Translations under genes and position numbers: made by a program | The notes under the pieces: generated by a model | Seen by the model: the letters and a program-made list of their open reading frames with translations, nothing else | Database searches by the model: none | What the model was told of the DNA's origin: nothing | Shown: positions 54,976 to 64,000 of the stretch, one piece after another | Numbering within the stretch: position 1 is the first letter of the stretch | Layout of the letters: the number at the start of each line of letters is the position of its first letter | Origin: an uncultured Desulfobacter sp. | GTDB taxonomy: Bacteria; Desulfobacterota; Desulfobacteria; Desulfobacterales; Desulfobacteraceae | Direction of reading: 5' to 3' | NCBI GenBank assembly: GCA_963665095.1 | Contig: OY762069.1 | Span: 1,184,001-1,248,000, forward strand | Length of the DNA stretch: 64,000 nucleotides

Positions 54976-55051
54976 GGGCCATTAGCTCAATTGGTAGAGC
55001 AACTGACTCTTAATCAGTAGGTCCAAGGTTCGATCCCTTGATGGCCCACCA
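54976..55051 (+). tRNA. tRNA-Lys (anticodon CTT)
   Basis: GGGCCAT/ATGGCCC acceptor stem, D arm AGCTCAATTGGTAGAGC, anticodon CTT at 55009-55011, GGTTCGATCC, encoded CCA. Confidence 0.97.
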
Positions 55052-55059
55052 CCGAAAAT

Positions 55060-55096
55060 AAAGCCGATCCGCTTCAAATAAGCATTTCGGCTTTTT
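55060..55096 (+). terminator. Terminator-like hairpin after the tRNA
   Basis: AAAGCCGA...TCGGCTTT followed by further Ts. Confidence 0.55.
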
Positions 55097-55189: not shown

Positions 55190-58100
55190 TTATGTCCTGG
55201 CACGCTCTCTTTTACTGGGCCGAAATGCCATTTTAATTCTATTCTTAATTGTCCTTTCCGTGATCAGGGGAACAACATCATCCAGCCTGTTGCTTTTTAC
55301 CCTGGCATTAAATCTCTGGATATCCATAATGATATCCCGCCATTCAGACGGATCCTTTTTTGAAACAGGCAGAGCATGATAATGAATAATCCGACTATAG
55401 AGCATACGCTTTCTTTCTGTATACTGGCGCTTCAGGGTTGTTTCGTTCCACTGGATCTCTCTGGGCTTTGCAATCTTGGTTGGATTCATGCCGGCAGCCC
55501 GCATGAGCCCGGTTCCCAGATCCCCTTTGATCTGCTCATTACCAAAGAAAACAGGGTCACCGGCCCTTGTTGTCACACCCTTGGTGGCTTCCCGATAAGC
55601 CTTTGCCACATTACCCATGGCAAGCGGAGTAATTTTTTCAATCCCTTTCAGGTAATCACCATGGGTGATATTCTCTGCGCCCTGGTAGATATTGCGCATC
55701 ATCCCGCCGATTGGGCCAAGTGCGTCCAGGGGTTCTTCAAAATCCGGCAGGCCTGGTGCAAGGGAACCTTTCAAAGAGACGCCGGCCAGGCCCGGCAGTC
55801 CGTAGCGGGCAATATCCTCGCCCGTTTCCCCGAATAATTGTTCTGCAAGTTGATATATTTTTTCTTCCGGGTCATCCTCTCTCATGGCTTTGAAAATCAA
55901 TTTTACAGCCGGCAAAAGAATGGAGCTTGCGGCGCCACCGAAAACCATGGGGGAGAGCATCATATATGCGGCTGCCCCGGCCTGCTTCCGGCCGATCATA
56001 TAAGACAATGTGGTAAAGTAATTGTGAATGAAGGTTTGAAAAATATACATGGCCGAAGCGGCCCGCAGCCCCCGGCCCTTTCTCAGTAACGCCGGCTGAT
56101 TTTCAACACCATAAATCCCATGAGCACGGTCTGACACTTTTTTTGCTTTCATCAGGGCTTCTTCTTTGTTCATTCCAGGATTTTCAGCAATGATACCTTT
56201 ATATGCAGCCAGGATGGTCACCCCGCGGTTAAATTCTTCCGTAATTTTGAACGGTGTCATCAATAATTCAACCGCCCTCCCATACTTCTGGGCCGGGCCG
56301 GATTTAAGGGCGTTAACGGTCTCCATATTCAGCTGGGCCGCAACCCATCCCCTGGAGAAGATATCCTCAAGGACGGCACGATCCGCCTTTGAAACCACCC
56401 CTTTGCCCGTAACAAAGGAAGCATATGTTTTCCCAGCCTTTACAACATGCTGGACAGTCCGCTGCAAAGGGATCCCGCCATAGGCATCCATTGCCGCCGG
56501 CACCGTGGTCCCCAGGGCAGTTAGGTTGATTGCAGCAGAAGACAGGCGCCCTCCTAAAAACCAGACAGATGCAAGGCCCTTGAGAGTGTTAATCACCCGG
56601 TCCCCGGCCTCATCATTCTTGAGGACGTTTTCAACGGCGTTCACAACATCGGTATAAGCCCGTTTCTGCCGTTTAGGGTCAATCATGTGGGTTTGGATGT
56701 ATTCACGGTATTCACGGTGAATGTTGCCTCTTAACCGGGCAATTTCCTGATGGGCATCTGCAGCTTGCTTATCATCTTTCCACTTCCGAATTTTTTCTTT
56801 TTCCCTGAACAGGGTACCGATCCTGAAAAGACGGTCTTGTCTGGATTTTTCAGATTCGGTCTTCACCCCTGCCCGTTCCCGTTGCAGTTGTTTTATTTCC
56901 CGGTCAATTTCGGCAATTCTTTCCTCTTCGGTCCTGGAATTCCTCTGAAGGTTTTTTAAATGATCTTCTGCAGCTGTCAGGGTCTCATAGTCCTTGTGCT
57001 GTTTCTGCCATTCATCCCAGGAGTAGTGCTGGCCAGTAATGGCTTTTGATGTATTCAAGGCAACCTGCTGTTTTGCAAAACCGCCGGCTGCTGAATTCAC
57101 TGCCTGGGCAATGGCCTTCAGCGGATCCGTCTCGTATCCAATCGGGACATCTTTTCCCACGGCATCAGACCGGGATATCATCCGTGCCCGGCTGCCCCTT
57201 GCACGCAATGTGTCAGCCAGTTGATTGACCAGGCTCTGGGCAATTTCAAAGGAGACATCGGTTTCCTGACCCCTGGCAGCATAAAGAGCATTGGTCACAA
57301 TTTCTTCTATATCTTTCGGGGCATTTTCAAACCAGTACCCAGGGGACCATGAATTCCCGCTGCGCCCTTTATCAGAATACTCACGGCCGCCAAGTTTCTC
57401 CAAGACCGATGCAGACCATTCATAGACACCGCCATTAGGCATGTAATAGCTGTCACCTCTCCACCTGCCTCTTAACCCAAGGTCTGCAAGATTTCGGGTC
57501 TTCACATCCATTTTGGTTTCGGATAAGGCTTGGTTCACCATGGCTTGGGTGGACAGGATGTTCTTGATATTTTGGTAAACATCTTCCGACATGCTACCGA
57601 CTTTTTTCACTTCGACCTCATACCCCAGGGCTTTCATTTTGCCGGCAAGGAAATCAGCCGTTTTTTTAAAGTCACGGTACTCAATGACATCGTGCTCCCC
57701 GTCTTTTTTTGAATATACCCGCCAATCGCCATTGGACCGTTGCCTGGGGAAATAATAGGAGGAGCGTTCGCCCATCTTGGCCAAAGCCACCTTCAAATCA
57801 ATCCTGACTTCGCCTGATTTTGTCCGGATCACGACGTCAGGAAGGGTCAGCCCCCGGGCCTCATATTCTTTAATGATGGATTCCCAGGACTCTGCATAGA
57901 AGTCATGCAGGTTGGCTGTCATGTTCCTGAATGCCCTCAGTGCATCGCGGCCTGCCGGGTTATCATACTCATCAACTTCATAATTTATGGACCAGGTCCT
58001 GGCTTCGGCTTTGGATCGAAACCCGGATTTCAAAAGCTTACGCTTCCCTGTTCTCTCATCCTTGGCGGAATAGACTTTCCACTCTCCTGGTTCGCCCTCC

Positions 58101-61100
58101 ATAACCAGGTTCCCGATCTGGTAAATATCTCGATCAACCAGATACTCTTTAAGTTCGGAGTATGTGGCTTTATCATGCTTCTGCAAATCCTCAATCGTGC
58201 CAATCATGGATTCTTCGCCATTTTTAAACAGCTCGTTTTCTTTTTGGAATTTCCATTCCGGCCGCTTCAGCAACTCTTCAAATGCCAGCTTCAAAGCAGG
58301 GATCTTTTCAGAGTAATGGGACATCAGACCCAGGACATTTTCAACAACACCGATATCCTCTTTATAGTCCGGGCCCATGTTCTTTCTGTTTTCCAAGACG
58401 CCTTTAAGCCCGGCTGCAATCTGGCTGTACGTTTTCTTTTTTTCACCTTCAGTTGGTGTGAGGATGTCCTGAGACGTTTGGTAAAGGGCCTCGTCGGAAT
58501 CTAAAGCTCTCATCCCGTTTACGTTCGGTGCAGGCAGCTGGTTGGTGTCACGCATACTGATCAACCGGCCGAAGGGGTTTGTTGTTATGATGTCATTCAC
58601 GCTTATGCCCTGAGTAGTTAGGCCTTCCGCCAGGCGTTCGTACAATTTATTTCGGTTCGTGTTGGCAAAGGTCTGCATGTTAATAACTGCCTGGACAGCA
58701 TTGACTCCTGAGGCCTTGGTCAAGATATCCCTGGCGGCCTCCCGGATTGTTTCTCCCTTTTTAAAAGGGATGAACACCACTTCTCTGTGCCCTTCATCCG
58801 TCAATAGGATTCCGTCCTGCTCTCCTTCGAACCGCTCCATTGCCGCCCATGCGTCCTTAATGCTGATCGGATTTTGCGGCTCCCTGGAAAGAATACGCCT
58901 TTCACTGACAGGAACTGTGCTTTTGGCTGGCAGTTGTTTTATTTTTTGAGCACCACCGACATGGTATTCATCGAACTCCAAGTATCTGCCGTCAGAGATA
59001 ACCAAACCATTGACGTTGATTCCGGCAAGCCTAAGGCCTAAACGGAGATCTCGCATAATGAGGCGGTCCTCGTCCGACGGTGCCAAATTTCCTGAAATGT
59101 GATTGTGAACCAGATAGGCTGCATGTGCAGATTTATTTTCCAGCAGATGCCCTGACAGTTGGTTGATATGAGCATCTGCCTTTCCGGACGATCCTTTGGA
59201 GAATTTATGGACCTCTAATACTTTTCCCGCTTTATCTGCTGTGAGGAGATAGACTTCTTCTTGAGCTGCTTCAGAAAGGCCAGATAGCATTTGTGCCGCA
59301 TCGGACACGTTGCGAACGGTTCTCCTTGGCACTCGGAGTTCTCCGGTTTCTCGCATTCCGATTCGTGCAAATCTGGGAACAGGTGTTTGTGTCTGTGTTC
59401 CACTTTTAACAACCCCTTTGGATAGATCTTTGTCGAGATCAATTATTTCAATAGAATCGTTGGCTTGATCTGGCTTCCGTTCGAAAGCTTTCCCAGATTC
59501 AATTTCCTTGGCCAATTTTCGTGAAGATGATTTCCCAATATACCGAAGCCCGTCCAGGAAATCCATAATCTTCTGGATAATCCTGTTGAAAACGGATTTA
59601 TCGCGGTACGCCTCCCGGTCTGCAATTATCTGGGCCAGGGTGTTGGCCCGGTCCTCTTCAGGCGTATTCAGGAGTTCATATCGATATTTATTCTCCTTAA
59701 TCAGTTTCGACCTGTGGACATCCAGGGAGAGTTCTTCGCTGCGGGTGACAATACCAAGATCCGTTAGCAGATGATACACCTCATGGGTAAGGGTCTGGCC
59801 GTCAGCAAGGTTCTGGTTCAGGGTAATGATTTGGTTCTTATATTTCCCCAGGATGACACCGCCTTCATCCATCCGGCCGATTTCCATGGCATACCGGATA
59901 TCATTGCCGCCAATGTGCTCAACGGCTTTTATCCGGCAGCCCTGGCCGTTTTTAAACCGCACTGATATGGATCCGTCAGGTGACAGGTTGACGAACTGTC
60001 CCTTGAAAAAATTTTGGATATCTTTCAAGGAAATCCCTTGGCCGAGCCTGGTGTCAATCTGGAACTTTTTCTTGACGGAATCAGATTTTGATTTTATATT
60101 AGATCCTGAGGGGTCACCCCCTCTTAAAGGCTCGCCCCCCGCGGCTTCTATCCGCGGTAAATTGCGAGCCTTTTTTATTTTCAACAACAAATCCGTGTCG
60201 TGATTGATGTTGTAATAAAAGTTGCCGTGCCTATCTTCCCCGATTGTTACCCCTGCTTGGTAAAGATTGTCCCCTATTTGAACATTTGCTGAGATATGAT
60301 GATAACGATAAACGTCCTTTTTTTTGCTTGAGAATTGACCGGGTTCGATAGCCCCATGTTTGATAATGTCAGGGATAGCCGGGATCAATTTGGCCTTAAT
60401 GGGATCACTTTTTAATCCGCGCTTAGTTTTGTCCCATCCGGTGCCTGTGATTCGGACAGGTCCCAATCCTTCCCGGACAACAGTCTTGACCTTTCTCTGC
60501 AGTTCTTCTCGAAAATATTTTTTTGCGGACTGGAAAAGCTCTTCCGGTGTCGCCCCTTTAATTTCTTCTCCAGAGAGTACGGCAACTGGTTTGGATTTCA
60601 AGTCATCGGATGTGGAATAAACAGCTTCTCCAGAATTTATATAAGCAATTTCTTTGACATCCGATTCATTTAAAATGATTTCCTTAAACTGACCGTTGAT
60701 ATTCGCAACCATTACAGGAGAGTGTTTATTAAGATCCCGCAAGCTTCGGGCCAACTCTATAAAAAATTCTGTTCTTTCGGTTTTACTGCCATCCTTGTTG
60801 TAAGGGATAAAGACTGTGGCGTTGGTTTGATCCATGGCTTCAAGGACTTCAGCGGCCACTTCCCGCTTTGATGTACCGGGAAGAAACTCCAGATACCCGA
60901 CTTCGTTCAACTGATTATCAGCAAGGATAAACCCGGACTCTTTGTCTTTTAAGACCTGGCTAACTGTATCTGGCGTGACCTTCACCCCTCGCTTTGAAGC
61001 TTTAAAGACCCGCTCCTTAACGGGGATAGAAACGCTTTTCTCTCCATCTAAAACAGAGTTATCCTGTGACAATGGACCAAACGCGTCAAACTTCCCCCAA

Positions 61101-62836
61101 ACGGGTTTATTGGATTGATCCCTGCCTATGATAAGATTTGAGGTCTCGATATCGCGAAGCTTGAGTGCGTCACCAATACGCCTTACAAGAGGAGTATCTG
61201 CATTGGCGGAAGGGGCAGTGCTGCCAGCCGGGTGGTTATGGACAAAATACACCTTCTGGATGCCTTTATTCGAAAAAATTTTGCCAACTAACTCCCCAGG
61301 CGCAACCGTGGCGCTGCTTATCCCGCCTTTTGAATAGGCGTGAACCTCAACAACTTGGTTTTTATCATCAACCGCTACGGTATAAGCGGTTTCATGAGGA
61401 GAATGTGCCAGATGGGATAAAAGAGAGGCGGCATCTTCATCAGAAGAAACGTTTAATCCACGATGCTGAATATTGCCTGTAGTTCTGACGCCAGTTCTGC
61501 TCTTTGCTGCCAGTCGTTTGGAGAAACCTTTTCCAGCTGCTGTCTGACCCGCTCCGCCTGTTTCTCCCTTTGGCTGTGAAAGAACCTTTCCGGACTCGGA
61601 TAGGTGGAACAGCTCAAGGTTGTCTTTTTCTGCTTTGTTCTCATTGGAAAACCCCTTTTTGGATTCTTCAATTATATCTTTTTTTTGTGTTTTTTCAAGG
61701 GTCTCTTGGTTATCTTTATCGGTTTTTTCTTCGAAATCATCTATTTTCACCGTGCTGTTTTTTGCCGAATCCGAATTTTTATTTGCTTTCCCCTTCAATG
61801 GAATCTGATGCATCTTTCCGTCCCGGGTTGAAACTGTCAGGGTATCAAACGTAATTTCCTTTCCAGCAAATCTTTTATCCCCAATATATTTTTTACCCTG
61901 GCCAGGCTTCACATAGGCAATGGTGGCATGTGGAGAGTAATCATAAGTTTGATCTGCAGGCAGAGAGATATCCGCTTCTTTCTCAATTTTTTTATTCAGG
62001 GCACGAAGTGCAGGGCTATCCACATCAACCTTGACCACGTCAAATTTATCATCTTCAAAGATGGAGACATCGCTCATTTTGACAGTGATAGGGGGGTGGG
62101 CTTCAATGATTTTGGCAATGTCGGACGGATCATTTGTTTTCAGGCCATATTTAACGGTAATGTGGGGAGCATCCTCCCGGCCGTACGAATCGTCCTGCGG
62201 ATCCGTGTAAAGGTCTTCATCAGGAATTTTTGAAGCAAAAGTCCGGATCTCTTCGGACTCTTTTGCCGGGAAATCAACCTGGGTGCTTGAATGATCGTGA
62301 ACAAATCCACCTGCTTTATCTTCAACCCCTTCCGTCGGAGCATCCTTTGTCTCAGTTGTTAAGGAATCCTTTACAACTGGCTCTTTTTTTTCTGAAGAGA
62401 TTTTGTCAACGGTTTTGTCGTTTTCTTTAACCGGGCTTAGGCCTTTATTATCAATGGTCTCAAGAGAACCTTCCGCTGTTTTGTCGGTCCTTTTGTCACT
62501 TTTATTTTCTTCCGAGCCTGGTACAAATTCGGTTTTTCCGGATTTCTGGGAGGAAGAAGGAATCTCCGTGTCAAGTTCTGTACCGGCAATATCAGATGCA
62601 AACCGGCCGGCATCAGCATCTGACATCGGGGGAGGTTCATATGCCGGTGGTTGTTCCTGCATGCCGGGAGCATCAGTCTGGGCCTGCTGATTCTGTGCAC
62701 CCTGCGGCTGCACAATCCCCCATGCAAGGATTTTAACAACACCCACAGCCACACCCGTGAACAGGCACAGCAAAGCAAAGATAAATATGGATATTCCCGC
62801 GATCTTTCCGATTTTCCACCAGTTCAAATTCTTCAA
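55190..62836 (-). CDS. Large polyvalent phage protein (2H phosphoesterase, 2x RadC-like JAB, LPD3-like, HExxH zincin, long helical C-terminus)
   Basis: PHITV/PHATI; HNHPAG...PS and HNHISG...PSDED; LTHEVYH; AGGAGG before the TTG start; 2548 uninterrupted codons. Confidence 0.85.
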   Translation of the reverse strand: MKNLNWWKIGKIAGISIFIFALLCLFTGVAVGVVKILAWGIVQPQGAQNQQAQTDAPGMQEQPPAYEPPPMSDADAGRFASDIAGTELDTEIPSSSQKSGKTEFVPGSEENKSDKRTDKTAEGSLETIDNKGLSPVKENDKTVDKISSEKKEPVVKDSLTTETKDAPTEGVEDKAGGFVHDHSSTQVDFPAKESEEIRTFASKIPDEDLYTDPQDDSYGREDAPHITVKYGLKTNDPSDIAKIIEAHPPITVKMSDVSIFEDDKFDVVKVDVDSPALRALNKKIEKEADISLPADQTYDYSPHATIAYVKPGQGKKYIGDKRFAGKEITFDTLTVSTRDGKMHQIPLKGKANKNSDSAKNSTVKIDDFEEKTDKDNQETLEKTQKKDIIEESKKGFSNENKAEKDNLELFHLSESGKVLSQPKGETGGAGQTAAGKGFSKRLAAKSRTGVRTTGNIQHRGLNVSSDEDAASLLSHLAHSPHETAYTVAVDDKNQVVEVHAYSKGGISSATVAPGELVGKIFSNKGIQKVYFVHNHPAGSTAPSANADTPLVRRIGDALKLRDIETSNLIIGRDQSNKPVWGKFDAFGPLSQDNSVLDGEKSVSIPVKERVFKASKRGVKVTPDTVSQVLKDKESGFILADNQLNEVGYLEFLPGTSKREVAAEVLEAMDQTNATVFIPYNKDGSKTERTEFFIELARSLRDLNKHSPVMVANINGQFKEIILNESDVKEIAYINSGEAVYSTSDDLKSKPVAVLSGEEIKGATPEELFQSAKKYFREELQRKVKTVVREGLGPVRITGTGWDKTKRGLKSDPIKAKLIPAIPDIIKHGAIEPGQFSSKKKDVYRYHHISANVQIGDNLYQAGVTIGEDRHGNFYYNINHDTDLLLKIKKARNLPRIEAAGGEPLRGGDPSGSNIKSKSDSVKKKFQIDTRLGQGISLKDIQNFFKGQFVNLSPDGSISVRFKNGQGCRIKAVEHIGGNDIRYAMEIGRMDEGGVILGKYKNQIITLNQNLADGQTLTHEVYHLLTDLGIVTRSEELSLDVHRSKLIKENKYRYELLNTPEEDRANTLAQIIADREAYRDKSVFNRIIQKIMDFLDGLRYIGKSSSRKLAKEIESGKAFERKPDQANDSIEIIDLDKDLSKGVVKSGTQTQTPVPRFARIGMRETGELRVPRRTVRNVSDAAQMLSGLSEAAQEEVYLLTADKAGKVLEVHKFSKGSSGKADAHINQLSGHLLENKSAHAAYLVHNHISGNLAPSDEDRLIMRDLRLGLRLAGINVNGLVISDGRYLEFDEYHVGGAQKIKQLPAKSTVPVSERRILSREPQNPISIKDAWAAMERFEGEQDGILLTDEGHREVVFIPFKKGETIREAARDILTKASGVNAVQAVINMQTFANTNRNKLYERLAEGLTTQGISVNDIITTNPFGRLISMRDTNQLPAPNVNGMRALDSDEALYQTSQDILTPTEGEKKKTYSQIAAGLKGVLENRKNMGPDYKEDIGVVENVLGLMSHYSEKIPALKLAFEELLKRPEWKFQKENELFKNGEESMIGTIEDLQKHDKATYSELKEYLVDRDIYQIGNLVMEGEPGEWKVYSAKDERTGKRKLLKSGFRSKAEARTWSINYEVDEYDNPAGRDALRAFRNMTANLHDFYAESWESIIKEYEARGLTLPDVVIRTKSGEVRIDLKVALAKMGERSSYYFPRQRSNGDWRVYSKKDGEHDVIEYRDFKKTADFLAGKMKALGYEVEVKKVGSMSEDVYQNIKNILSTQAMVNQALSETKMDVKTRNLADLGLRGRWRGDSYYMPNGGVYEWSASVLEKLGGREYSDKGRSGNSWSPGYWFENAPKDIEEIVTNALYAARGQETDVSFEIAQSLVNQLADTLRARGSRARMISRSDAVGKDVPIGYETDPLKAIAQAVNSAAGGFAKQQVALNTSKAITGQHYSWDEWQKQHKDYETLTAAEDHLKNLQRNSRTEEERIAEIDREIKQLQRERAGVKTESEKSRQDRLFRIGTLFREKEKIRKWKDDKQAADAHQEIARLRGNIHREYREYIQTHMIDPKRQKRAYTDVVNAVENVLKNDEAGDRVINTLKGLASVWFLGGRLSSAAINLTALGTTVPAAMDAYGGIPLQRTVQHVVKAGKTYASFVTGKGVVSKADRAVLEDIFSRGWVAAQLNMETVNALKSGPAQKYGRAVELLMTPFKITEEFNRGVTILAAYKGIIAENPGMNKEEALMKAKKVSDRAHGIYGVENQPALLRKGRGLRAASAMYIFQTFIHNYFTTLSYMIGRKQAGAAAYMMLSPMVFGGAASSILLPAVKLIFKAMREDDPEEKIYQLAEQLFGETGEDIARYGLPGLAGVSLKGSLAPGLPDFEEPLDALGPIGGMMRNIYQGAENITHGDYLKGIEKITPLAMGNVAKAYREATKGVTTRAGDPVFFGNEQIKGDLGTGLMRAAGMNPTKIAKPREIQWNETTLKRQYTERKRMLYSRIIHYHALPVSKKDPSEWRDIIMDIQRFNARVKSNRLDDVVPLITERTIKNRIKMAFRPSKRERART

Positions 62837-62845
62837 TCCTGCCTC

Positions 62846-63568
62846 CTAATCCTCCAAGTTAAAAGCCGAACCACCCTGGGTGGTTTCCAGCCAAGGGCGT
62901 TGGGTTAAAATTGTGTGAACCATCCCGCCCAGCAGCCCCACCACCGGGAAGTCCTCATACTTTCCGTTTTCAGCATCTTCCTGGCGGATGGCCTGGGCAT
63001 AGGATGAAAGATTCTGGTGACCGTTTACATCCAGATAGACGGGGCTCCGGAGCTGTGGATTCCGGGCCCGGAACAACTGCCGGATATACAGGGGGAAAGA
63101 ATGTTTCTCTCCGAAGTCAACCGGCGGCTTTATGTAAATTCCCTGGCCCTCACCGTGTTTTTCCTCAAGCTTAACGCTGGTTCTGGACACCAGGGGCTGA
63201 AACCGGTCAGGGTCTCCTATCCACCATGGCAGGATCCGGGAGTCCTTTCCAAAACCATACTTGACCCGCAGCCGAAGTAAGATCTGAAACAGCGCAAAGA
63301 CTTCTTTCTCTTCAGCGGCTTCCAATATCTTGAAAACAGGCAGCCCATTAACCATGACAATACCAATAACGATAACAATACCGGCAGATGAAACAGACGG
63401 ATAGGCGATCCCGCCAATGATATCGCTATACCGTTCAGCGGCTTCCATGTTCCAGAACACTGGATTTTTCAGGGTAAAATCCTGGCCGTAAACCGTGGCC
63501 CAGTCCTTCCGGGCCTGCTCGGTATGTTCCATATGGTGATCTTGTTCAACGCGGATGACACATTCCAT
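62846..63568 (-). CDS. Hypothetical phage protein
   Basis: 240-aa ORF coupled to the terminase by a TAATG overlap, ending 9 bp before the giant gene. Confidence 0.8.
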   Translation of the reverse strand: MECVIRVEQDHHMEHTEQARKDWATVYGQDFTLKNPVFWNMEAAERYSDIIGGIAYPSVSSAGIVIVIGIVMVNGLPVFKILEAAEEKEVFALFQILLRLRVKYGFGKDSRILPWWIGDPDRFQPLVSRTSVKLEEKHGEGQGIYIKPPVDFGEKHSFPLYIRQLFRARNPQLRSPVYLDVNGHQNLSSYAQAIRQEDAENGKYEDFPVVGLLGGMVHTILTQRPWLETTQGGSAFNLED

Positions 63569-64000
63569 TAGAACAGTCCTCCAAAGAAACCAGTCGGTGC
63601 AAAAGTGAGAATGACTGACTCCAGTTCATCCGGAGAATGCTGAAGAAGTTTTTTCATATCGGGCTTTCGCATGATCCGGACCTTGCCATCATCCGTGTTA
63701 TAAGTGGGAATAAGTGCCTGTTCAATAAGCCGTTCATCAGGTGGAAGCATAGCTGTATCATCAGTACGAAGCCATTCCCTGAATGCCCAGTAAAGCTGGT
63801 CCCGAAGAATGCCAAACTCACCCATTTCAGTCTTTTCTGTGGGTGAGTTGGCAACTTTTATTGAATGGGCAATGACTGCATCCTCAGCATCCATCATACC
63901 TTGAGCCACCCCGGCCCCGACGCCGGTACCGTCCACATTAGCATGGGTTAGATTACCGGTTTTTATGTAGTCGGCAGCCGCCTTTCTGGCTGTTACTGTG
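63568..64000 (-). CDS. Phage terminase large subunit, C-terminal nuclease domain (5' partial)
   Basis: NVDGTGVGAGV, LRDQLYW..REWL, K.DMKK..HSPD....LTFA; frame open to the window edge. Confidence 0.82.
   Translation of the reverse strand, partial: TVTARKAAADYIKTGNLTHANVDGTGVGAGVAQGMMDAEDAVIAHSIKVANSPTEKTEMGEFGILRDQLYWAFREWLRTDDTAMLPPDERLIEQALIPTYNTDDGKVRIMRKPDMKKLLQHSPDELESVILTFAPTGFFGGLF

Follow-up and report, generated by a model that had tools for sequence, protein, structure and literature searches.

What is a gene that joins a membrane-spanning segment to several candidate enzymes against host defences: a working protein, or what a deletion has left of one? Such a gene is found in the genome of an uncultured Desulfobacter sp. 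(assembly GCA_963665095.1, here G000), within the 64,000-nucleotide stretch that was analysed (contig OY762069.1, 1,184,001 to 1,248,000; the window). A sequence-only reading had described it as a polyvalent protein with a transmembrane start, of a class proposed to enter the cell with the DNA, and had suggested a multi-enzyme anti-defence protein, possibly self-processed by its zincin. With a probability of roughly 0.7, this copy is a non-injectable deletion relic in a headless prophage, while an intact form of ~3,000 aa in sibling phages is likely a packaged and injected multi-enzyme counter-defence protein.

The open reading frame

The ORF at 55190..62836 is genuine. It lies on the minus strand, encodes 2548 aa, starts at a TTG codon with a GGAGG ribosome site upstream, and its frame is open throughout 7.6 kb. 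The domain positions named from the letters alone agree with the Pfam matches (2H, RadC twice, LPD3) and with the conserved motifs. The assignment as a polyvalent protein also holds, as at least two unlike domains (2H, two RadC, LPD3 and tail-700) are found in one polypeptide. The protein is of the phage type, a known kind, of which this copy is damaged. With the phage-type polyvalent proteins described in the accessible text of Iyer 2017 (PMC5512222), it has in common a giant product of the late region, a metallopeptidase (MPTase) motif, the 2H, LPD3 and RadC domains, and mosaic domain exchange. Unlike them, it lacks the native ~460 N-terminal residues and has a foreign transmembrane start.

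A deletion fusion of two phage genes

The nearest homologue, P0003 (3006 aa), aligns with the window protein from aa 45 to the end, with 8 differences in all outside two diverged blocks, and carries 462 additional N-terminal residues that are missing from the window protein. This native N-terminal region is conserved in four of the 14 full-length homologues tested, namely P0014 (70%), P0005 (48%), P0015 and P0007; a search for it in G000 gave no significant match (best E 0.21). The residues that stand in its place come from elsewhere. Window aa 2-46 match the start of a 166-aa membrane protein of phage L021 (42% over 45 aa, pairwise E 7e-8), the gene of which occupies the same place, directly behind a 240-aa gene.

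The window ORF is the product of an in-frame deletion, which joins the start of the small membrane-protein gene (aa 1-47; 62696..62836, minus strand) to about codon 465 of a polyvalent gene of ~3,000 aa. The joint, at 62696..62711 on the same strand, falls within an imperfect repeat of ~16 bp at which both parent genes read Q-G-x. The frame was kept open across the joint because the repeat sits in the same frame in both parents. The transmembrane segment that had been noticed is present (one helix, aa ~15-33, hydropathy 2.6) but is foreign to the native protein, having been brought by the deletion from another gene. Likewise, the domains of the architecture that had been listed from N to C terminus are there, but they belong to a chimera. 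The joint is followed by an acidic low-complexity linker (aa 48-179; 62300..62695, minus strand), where P0003 has a 39-aa insertion.

Contigs from several public runs establish the joint. In X4 and X5, which come from one sample, it forms its own 58-nt unitig (depth 138 and 222, respectively) with two shallow branches (depth 3.8-6.9). One branch reads MQAMEDEAAA and matches P0003 immediately before the joint, with the polyvalent gene upstream; the other reads AYGGLLLVGV and extends the hydrophobic membrane protein. In run X1, from a separate study, one contig crosses the joint with zero differences, and in run X6 the polyvalent arm is found without the joint and with the 117-nt insertion of P0003. 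Public contigs therefore contain the joint as well as both intact arms.

The lost block is likely ~15 kb long, as indicated by an intact branch of 14,553 nt and by the matching L021 interval of 14.1 kb plus ~460 codons. The content of the sibling's intact block was read across from L021, whose terL and 240-aa genes show 68-73% DNA identity. The shallow intact form in X4 is probably a sibling and not the direct parent, because it appears to have a different cassette for the second JAB module (joint 58501-59489, depth 3.7). DNA of an intact parent or sibling was sought in viral and metagenome contigs and was not found with the queries used. The near identity to P0003 means that the deletion is recent, so the intact frame and motifs show no selection.

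A prophage without a head

The chimeric gene belongs to a prophage of ~36 kb integrated in a tRNA-Lys(CTT) gene (54976..55051, plus strand, ARAGORN). The 57-bp attL core (55007..55063, plus strand) recurs 36.1 kb away as an exact copy at 91108-91164 on the window scale, past the window end, beside the integrase gene; the chimeric ORF ends 126 bp from the core. The element carries the integrase, a methylase, two toxin-antitoxin pairs, recombination and replication genes, terS, terL (3' part at 63568..64000, minus strand, continuing past the window end) and the 240-aa gene (62846..63568, minus strand). The chimeric ORF lies directly behind this last gene, so that the polyvalent gene sits here among phage late genes, behind terS/terL.

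Portal, major capsid and tail PHROGs were matched by none of the 48 element ORFs scanned, a set selected by hand, while the genes of L021 do match portal, capsid and tail families. A tblastn search of G000 with the portal and capsid proteins of L021 gave no gene-length match. The proteins of L021 and L056 are 77% (terL) and 79% (240-aa gene) identical to those of the element, and in these phages the order is 240-aa gene, 166-aa membrane-protein gene, portal, capsid, head-closure and virion genes, and then the giant gene, which lies 14.1 kb further on and ends the portal-capsid block. The position of the 240-aa gene between terL and the portal block was seen more widely: among 26 terL-related loci, several of them near-duplicates and not all independent, it is present in 10, with a portal gene behind it in nine; the tenth locus stops 715 bp later.

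As the element has no head genes, this copy is likely a relic. Its entry into a cell with phage DNA, as had been proposed, is unlikely for a prophage without a portal or capsid gene. Mass spectrometry of induced particles had been suggested as a check; the element's own particles are likely absent upon induction, and such an analysis would probably find none of them. Upstream of the chimeric ORF, 4 promoter-like sites were counted against 6.0 expected by chance.

Other features of the element and its surroundings were observed. The toxin-antitoxin pairs (L002:1805-3030) are RelE-like/HTH and HicA/HicB-like, and may help to retain a defective prophage. An IS of 3,541 bp (G000:C1:1262587-1266127, L001/L002) lies in the early region of the prophage and has 12 other near-identical copies in the genome. 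A record of 32,586 nt in X1 has the exact size of an attR-core-attL circle broken at this IS (8,980 nt before 55007); it is possibly the excised circle, or else a graph artefact. A second prophage lies ~6 kb to the right of the first (G000:C1:~1281000-1318500, L002-L004), with integrase, terminase, portal, capsid and contractile-tail-like genes among its ORFs as judged by eye. ARAGORN also reported tRNA-Pyl and tRNA-Sec genes in the genome (G000:C1:900717-900790 and 5485637-5485734).

The 2H phosphodiesterase domain

The first of the enzymatic domains (aa 180-350; 61787..62299, minus strand) is matched by Pfam as 2H at aa 213-311 (E 1e-9). Its two motifs, H225-x-T227 and H303-x-T305, are conserved at 95-100% in 20 aligned rows. 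When a profile of ten 2H sequences was compared with the PDB, 9q2g came first (E 8e-6) and the cellular 2H protein 2d4g next (2e-4), and the Acb1 structure 7t26 was matched weakly (E 0.06). The entry 9q2g is phage 2H PDE-9, which is reported to cleave 3'3'-cGAMP; viral 2H groups that were inactive on the tested panel are reported in the accessible text of the same work (10.1101/2025.08.21.671373).

Acb1 and the phage 2H phosphodiesterases (PMC9117128; 10.1101/2025.08.21.671373; 9q2g, 7t26) share with the window domain, as far as their accessible descriptions go, the 2H fold and the two HxT motifs. In contrast to the free-standing Acb1, the window domain is embedded in a virion-type giant protein and falls below the Pfam Acb1 threshold. 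The window protein gave no match to this family (PF23474) at E<=1; homologue P0135 passes the cut-off (28.6 vs 27), and P0091 and P0098 stay below it. Six matches to the 2H domain were found among annotated phage records, every one of them in a large genome. Judged from these comparisons, the window 2H domain may work like Acb1, though it is not filed as such. Against this reading stands the cellular protein 2d4g, which scores almost equal to 9q2g.

Two JAB modules with a second, likely metal-less repeat

Pfam finds RadC twice in the window protein (E 2e-32), in JAB module 1 (aa ~447-746; 60599..61498) and JAB module 2 (aa ~1152-1455; 58472..59383), both on the minus strand. Of 147 aligned rows, 144 have the RadC-type JAB metal site, E/HxH/S/D, and both window modules are among them. 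Module 2 was folded, and module 1 is assigned by alignment alone. In the model of module 2 (pLDDT 92), the first half superposes on RadC 2qlc with Z 15.3 and rmsd 2.6 over 121 aligned residues, and RadC was the only match of profile A2 in the PDB. The second half shows the same order of helices and strands as the first but without the metal ligands. For this repeat, a profile-profile comparison gave a probability of 65% (E 6e-5, 93 columns), and the structural matches of the second half reached only Z ~4. The second half of each module is likely a dead JAB-like repeat. The modules share the E, HxH, S and D metal site with the RadC family (2qlc) and differ from it by this added domain, which the accessible text of Iyer 2017 (PMC5512222) does not mention. 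Predicted structures of four viral proteins in BFVD match the whole two-domain unit with TM 0.74-0.78, three of them labelled uncultured Caudovirales.

The module is widespread. A search with it returned 975 proteins at E<=0.001, and among the best 149 of these (the window's own left out), 117 are of at least 1,500 aa. Within those 117 giants, the C-terminal profile was found in 21, the MPTase profile in 20 and the 2H profile in 4; 2H and RadC occur together in at least 4 other giant proteins. In homologues, RadC is accompanied by InPase, LPD38 and DdrB-ParB. Annotated phage records gave no match to the JAB module. At the genome level, 94 of 101 genomes were matched, nearly all by short RadC-region matches; few have polyvalent homologues and none a near-identical one. 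A lone fragment of ~110 codons like aa 1082-1193 (L060:11279-11527, G035) lies beside mobile-element-like ORFs and is likely another remnant. The combination of domains had been considered possibly new. In a domain-architecture comparison, P0003 turned out to carry the same enzyme set, being one of 32 non-self matches with the same Pfam set as the window protein.

Section 33 of Iyer 2017 (PMC5512222) confines RadC to proteins of conjugative elements, though section 16 mentions prophages too. In the window protein, RadC lies beside the 2H domain that is listed as 'phage-only' in the accessible text of that survey, and RadC is common in phage-type giant proteins, contrary to the 'conjugative only' list of section 33. 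The biochemical role of RadC is described there as still disputed. In the literature, no paper was found that joins RadC/JAB with phage anti-defence, and for RadC, polyvalent proteins and prophages, Iyer 2017 alone was on the topic, as judged by listing.

Module 2 also differs between close relatives. Most 100-aa blocks of P0003 and the window protein are 97-100% identical, as against 46-47% in module 2 and 73-86% in the surroundings of LPD3; module 2 is 80% identical to that of P0014. Module 2 is a cassette exchanged between sibling phages.

LPD3, the putative metallopeptidase and the C-terminal region

Pfam LPD3 (PF18798) matches aa 767-875 (60212..60538, minus strand) with E 7e-16 and 59 bits against a cut-off of 27. 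It is followed by an MPTase-type metallopeptidase domain (aa ~930-1120; 59477..60049, minus strand), for which the fold assignment is tentative. Its motif is well kept: across 35 aligned rows H1018, E1019 and H1022 do not vary, and the conservation of E1061 is 97%. In a model of LPD3 and MPTase together (pLDDT 67), the motif residues lie on successive helices behind a strand. In the fold comparison, the putative metal-dependent hydrolase 3dl1 scored Z 6.2 (76 residues aligned, rmsd 2.8), level with the first row, an unrelated entry at Z 6.6. For LPD3, rows of BECR-fold RNases scored Z 3.6-4.2, in a part of the model where confidence is low. Foldseek returned nothing for this model at E<=0.001, the zincin part had no match in the domain libraries, and no stand-alone relatives of it were found in 308 candidates. 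A shared short motif at the module ends was considered as an MPTase cleavage site and was set aside as weak: it occurs in 16 of 147 downstream flanks, against a background of 6%, and in 4 of 147 upstream flanks.

The conserved C-terminal region (aa 1460-2548; 55193..58459, minus strand), of ~1,100 aa, is 55-77% identical across 8 homologues of differing cargo. It includes NCBIfam tail-700/PLxRFG (NF032893) at aa 2055-2533 (123 vs 100 bits cut-off), its neighbours in the Atlas are clusters of viral proteins, among which LPD39 occurs in some, and it is likely a virion or ejection part. A comparable case is gp47 of phage phi24B, a polyvalent protein detected in virions, for which a role in ejection has been proposed; gp47 has LPD1, LPD5, LPD38 and MuF-C, and is likened to the window protein by its description in the accessible text (10.64898/2026.04.10.717836). 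A phage ejection protein that inhibits CBASS has also been reported (10.1101/2025.07.23.666291, accessible text).

Host CRISPR and CBASS loci

The type I-G operon of the host is complete, with the cas operon at 2109592-2120469 and the array at 2120674-2124447 (G000:C1). When 202 spacers were compared with 14 targets, the two best were neighbours, the 7th and 8th from the cas end of this array (G000:C1:2121156-2121265). Both fit a single site in the capsid gene of L021 (29/36 and 28/36), whereas the spacer ranked after them reaches 25/33. Both spacers encode QRFIGQLVTNHR, with mutual differences at third positions only; the L021 capsid has QRYIGQLVTNHR at this site, and five more distant capsids differ there. 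By sequence, the adjacent spacers are synonymous variants of one protospacer that resembles the capsid gene, a gene of the lost block. The retained prophage reached at best 23/34 with any of the 202 spacers, which is background level, and self-targeting of it was not found. The spacers and the two-spacer pattern were absent, as searched, from 160 further genomes of the family and from viral and metagenome contigs.

Loss of large segments between short homologous stretches has been described as a way to escape type I self-targeting (PMC6990116, accessible text). Like such CRISPR-escape deletions and cryptic prophages, the present locus has undergone a large deletion at a repeat that is short and imperfect, and the host carries spacers that resemble a gene from the lost block; in contrast to them, the capsid protospacer is here deduced from the relative L021 and not from the parent. 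The prophage deletion may have been triggered by self-targeting of the host's type I-G CRISPR, at odds well short of even.

In run X6, an 84-nt contig with repeat-like flanks shares 33 nt exactly with the 240-aa gene (window 63010-63042), and its depth is similar to that of host-like DNA that ends at the tRNA. It is likely that this contig comes from a related strain and contains a CRISPR spacer directed at the phage.

Two further defence loci were seen in the genome. One is a CBASS locus (G000:C1:1845097-1849367, L061) with a phospholipase and a cGAS-like cyclase, the gene of the latter apparently split by an IS4 transposase. The other is a type III-like CRISPR locus between two arrays (G000:C1:2284811-2304098, L062), with RAMP genes, two TIGR02221 genes and a Cas10-like gene that is short (506 aa) and matches Cas10 weakly. 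Both are plausible targets of the intact protein.

Proposed mechanism and alternative explanations

Going by what is established for the family, the intact protein would be made late, packed into the head and ejected along with the DNA. Its conserved N- and C-terminal regions may serve as the delivery chassis and the middle cassettes as the cargo. At entry, the 2H domain would break down the alarm signals of CBASS or type III CRISPR, which are cyclic or 2'-5' oligonucleotides; the JAB modules would have nucleic acids or nucleotides as substrates, their second repeat serving as a platform for binding, and the metallopeptidase may release domains. The multi-enzyme anti-defence role that had been assigned to the window protein is plausible for the intact form, as the 2H profile finds first in the PDB a phage enzyme reported to cleave cGAMP, but the window copy is a fusion left by a deletion. 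In the lysogen it would be silent and, on induction, read from the ribosome site of the small gene, giving a single-pass membrane protein with its enzymes away from their cytoplasmic targets. The N-in topology presumed here is suggested by the charge distribution only, since three lysines precede the helix. A relic in this sense is the most likely reading of the window copy, at about the same 0.7, although the open 7.6-kb frame and the ribosome site fit a working gene equally well as a recent deletion.

The element might instead be a helper-dependent parasite, whose own terminase fills the capsids of the intact sibling, with the truncated protein as a passenger or as a means of interfering with the helper. 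The integrase, both att sites, the replication genes, terS and terL all remain, the X1 contig of 32,586 nt has the exact size of the circle broken at the IS, and the intact sibling co-occurs in X4/X5. However, the circle may stem from graph simplification at a repeat, the IS lies in the early region, the intact form is shallow where seen, and no satellite-type interference genes were recognised in the element. A parasite of this kind is unlikely.

Slightly less probable is a working fusion, kept by the host as a membrane-anchored multi-enzyme that protects the lysogen from incoming elements or modulates them. Section 32 of Iyer 2017 (PMC5512222) suggests that hosts may capture polyvalent proteins; the open frame, the ribosome site and all catalytic motifs are kept, and the joined form, seen in two studies, makes up the deep path of X4/X5. 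These points lose force as the deletion is recent by its near identity to P0003, so that intactness is no sign of selection, and as the in-frame repeat in both parents accounts for the kept frame. The gene is still at the end of the terminase operon, its promoter signal is not above chance, and with the N terminus likely inside, the enzymes would come to lie outside the cytoplasm.

The intact protein could also act mainly in DNA ejection and host takeover, its cassettes processing RNA ends or phage DNA and not defence signals. The accessible text of Iyer 2017 (PMC5512222) offers an RNase role for the 2H domains of polyvalent proteins (section 20) and a nucleic-acid role for RadC, and the C-terminal chassis is conserved across homologues with differing cargo. 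Yet the turnover of cassettes between near-identical siblings fits an arms race, the 2H clade is nearest to Acb1-like structures with one homologue above the Pfam Acb1 cut-off, and loci for CBASS and for a type III-like CRISPR system are found in the host; this explanation appears as improbable as the working fusion. An assembly error, for which one could cite that the joint falls in a short, imperfect repeat and that public data contain each arm unjoined, was rejected as hardly credible, given the joint's own unitig of depth 138 and 222, the second-study contig that spans it unchanged, and a repeat too short to join 31-letter words alone.

What the locus means for polyvalent proteins

What the sequences show is the fusion with its joint, both unbroken arms, the lack of head genes and the preserved catalytic motifs. 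The locus carries a caution: a striking 'membrane-anchored multi-enzyme' architecture can arise as a fresh deletion product in a dead prophage. Should the capsid-like spacers prove to fit the lost block, the locus would also document, in nature, how a prophage was carved by type I-G self-targeting.

The intact form, for which counter-defence is deduced from its domains, pairs an Acb1-like 2H domain with a chassis that is likely ejected, and signal degradation could come before phage gene expression. Its JAB cassette is widespread, cleanly bounded, well-folding and swapped by sibling phages. It is conceivable, though rather doubtful, that the RadC-type JAB with its dead repeat, in more than 100 giant proteins, represents an undescribed class of injected counter-defence enzyme, which together with the Acb1-like 2H domain would disarm nucleotide-signal immunity at entry. 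If this is true, RadC-type JAB domains would gain their first testable role.
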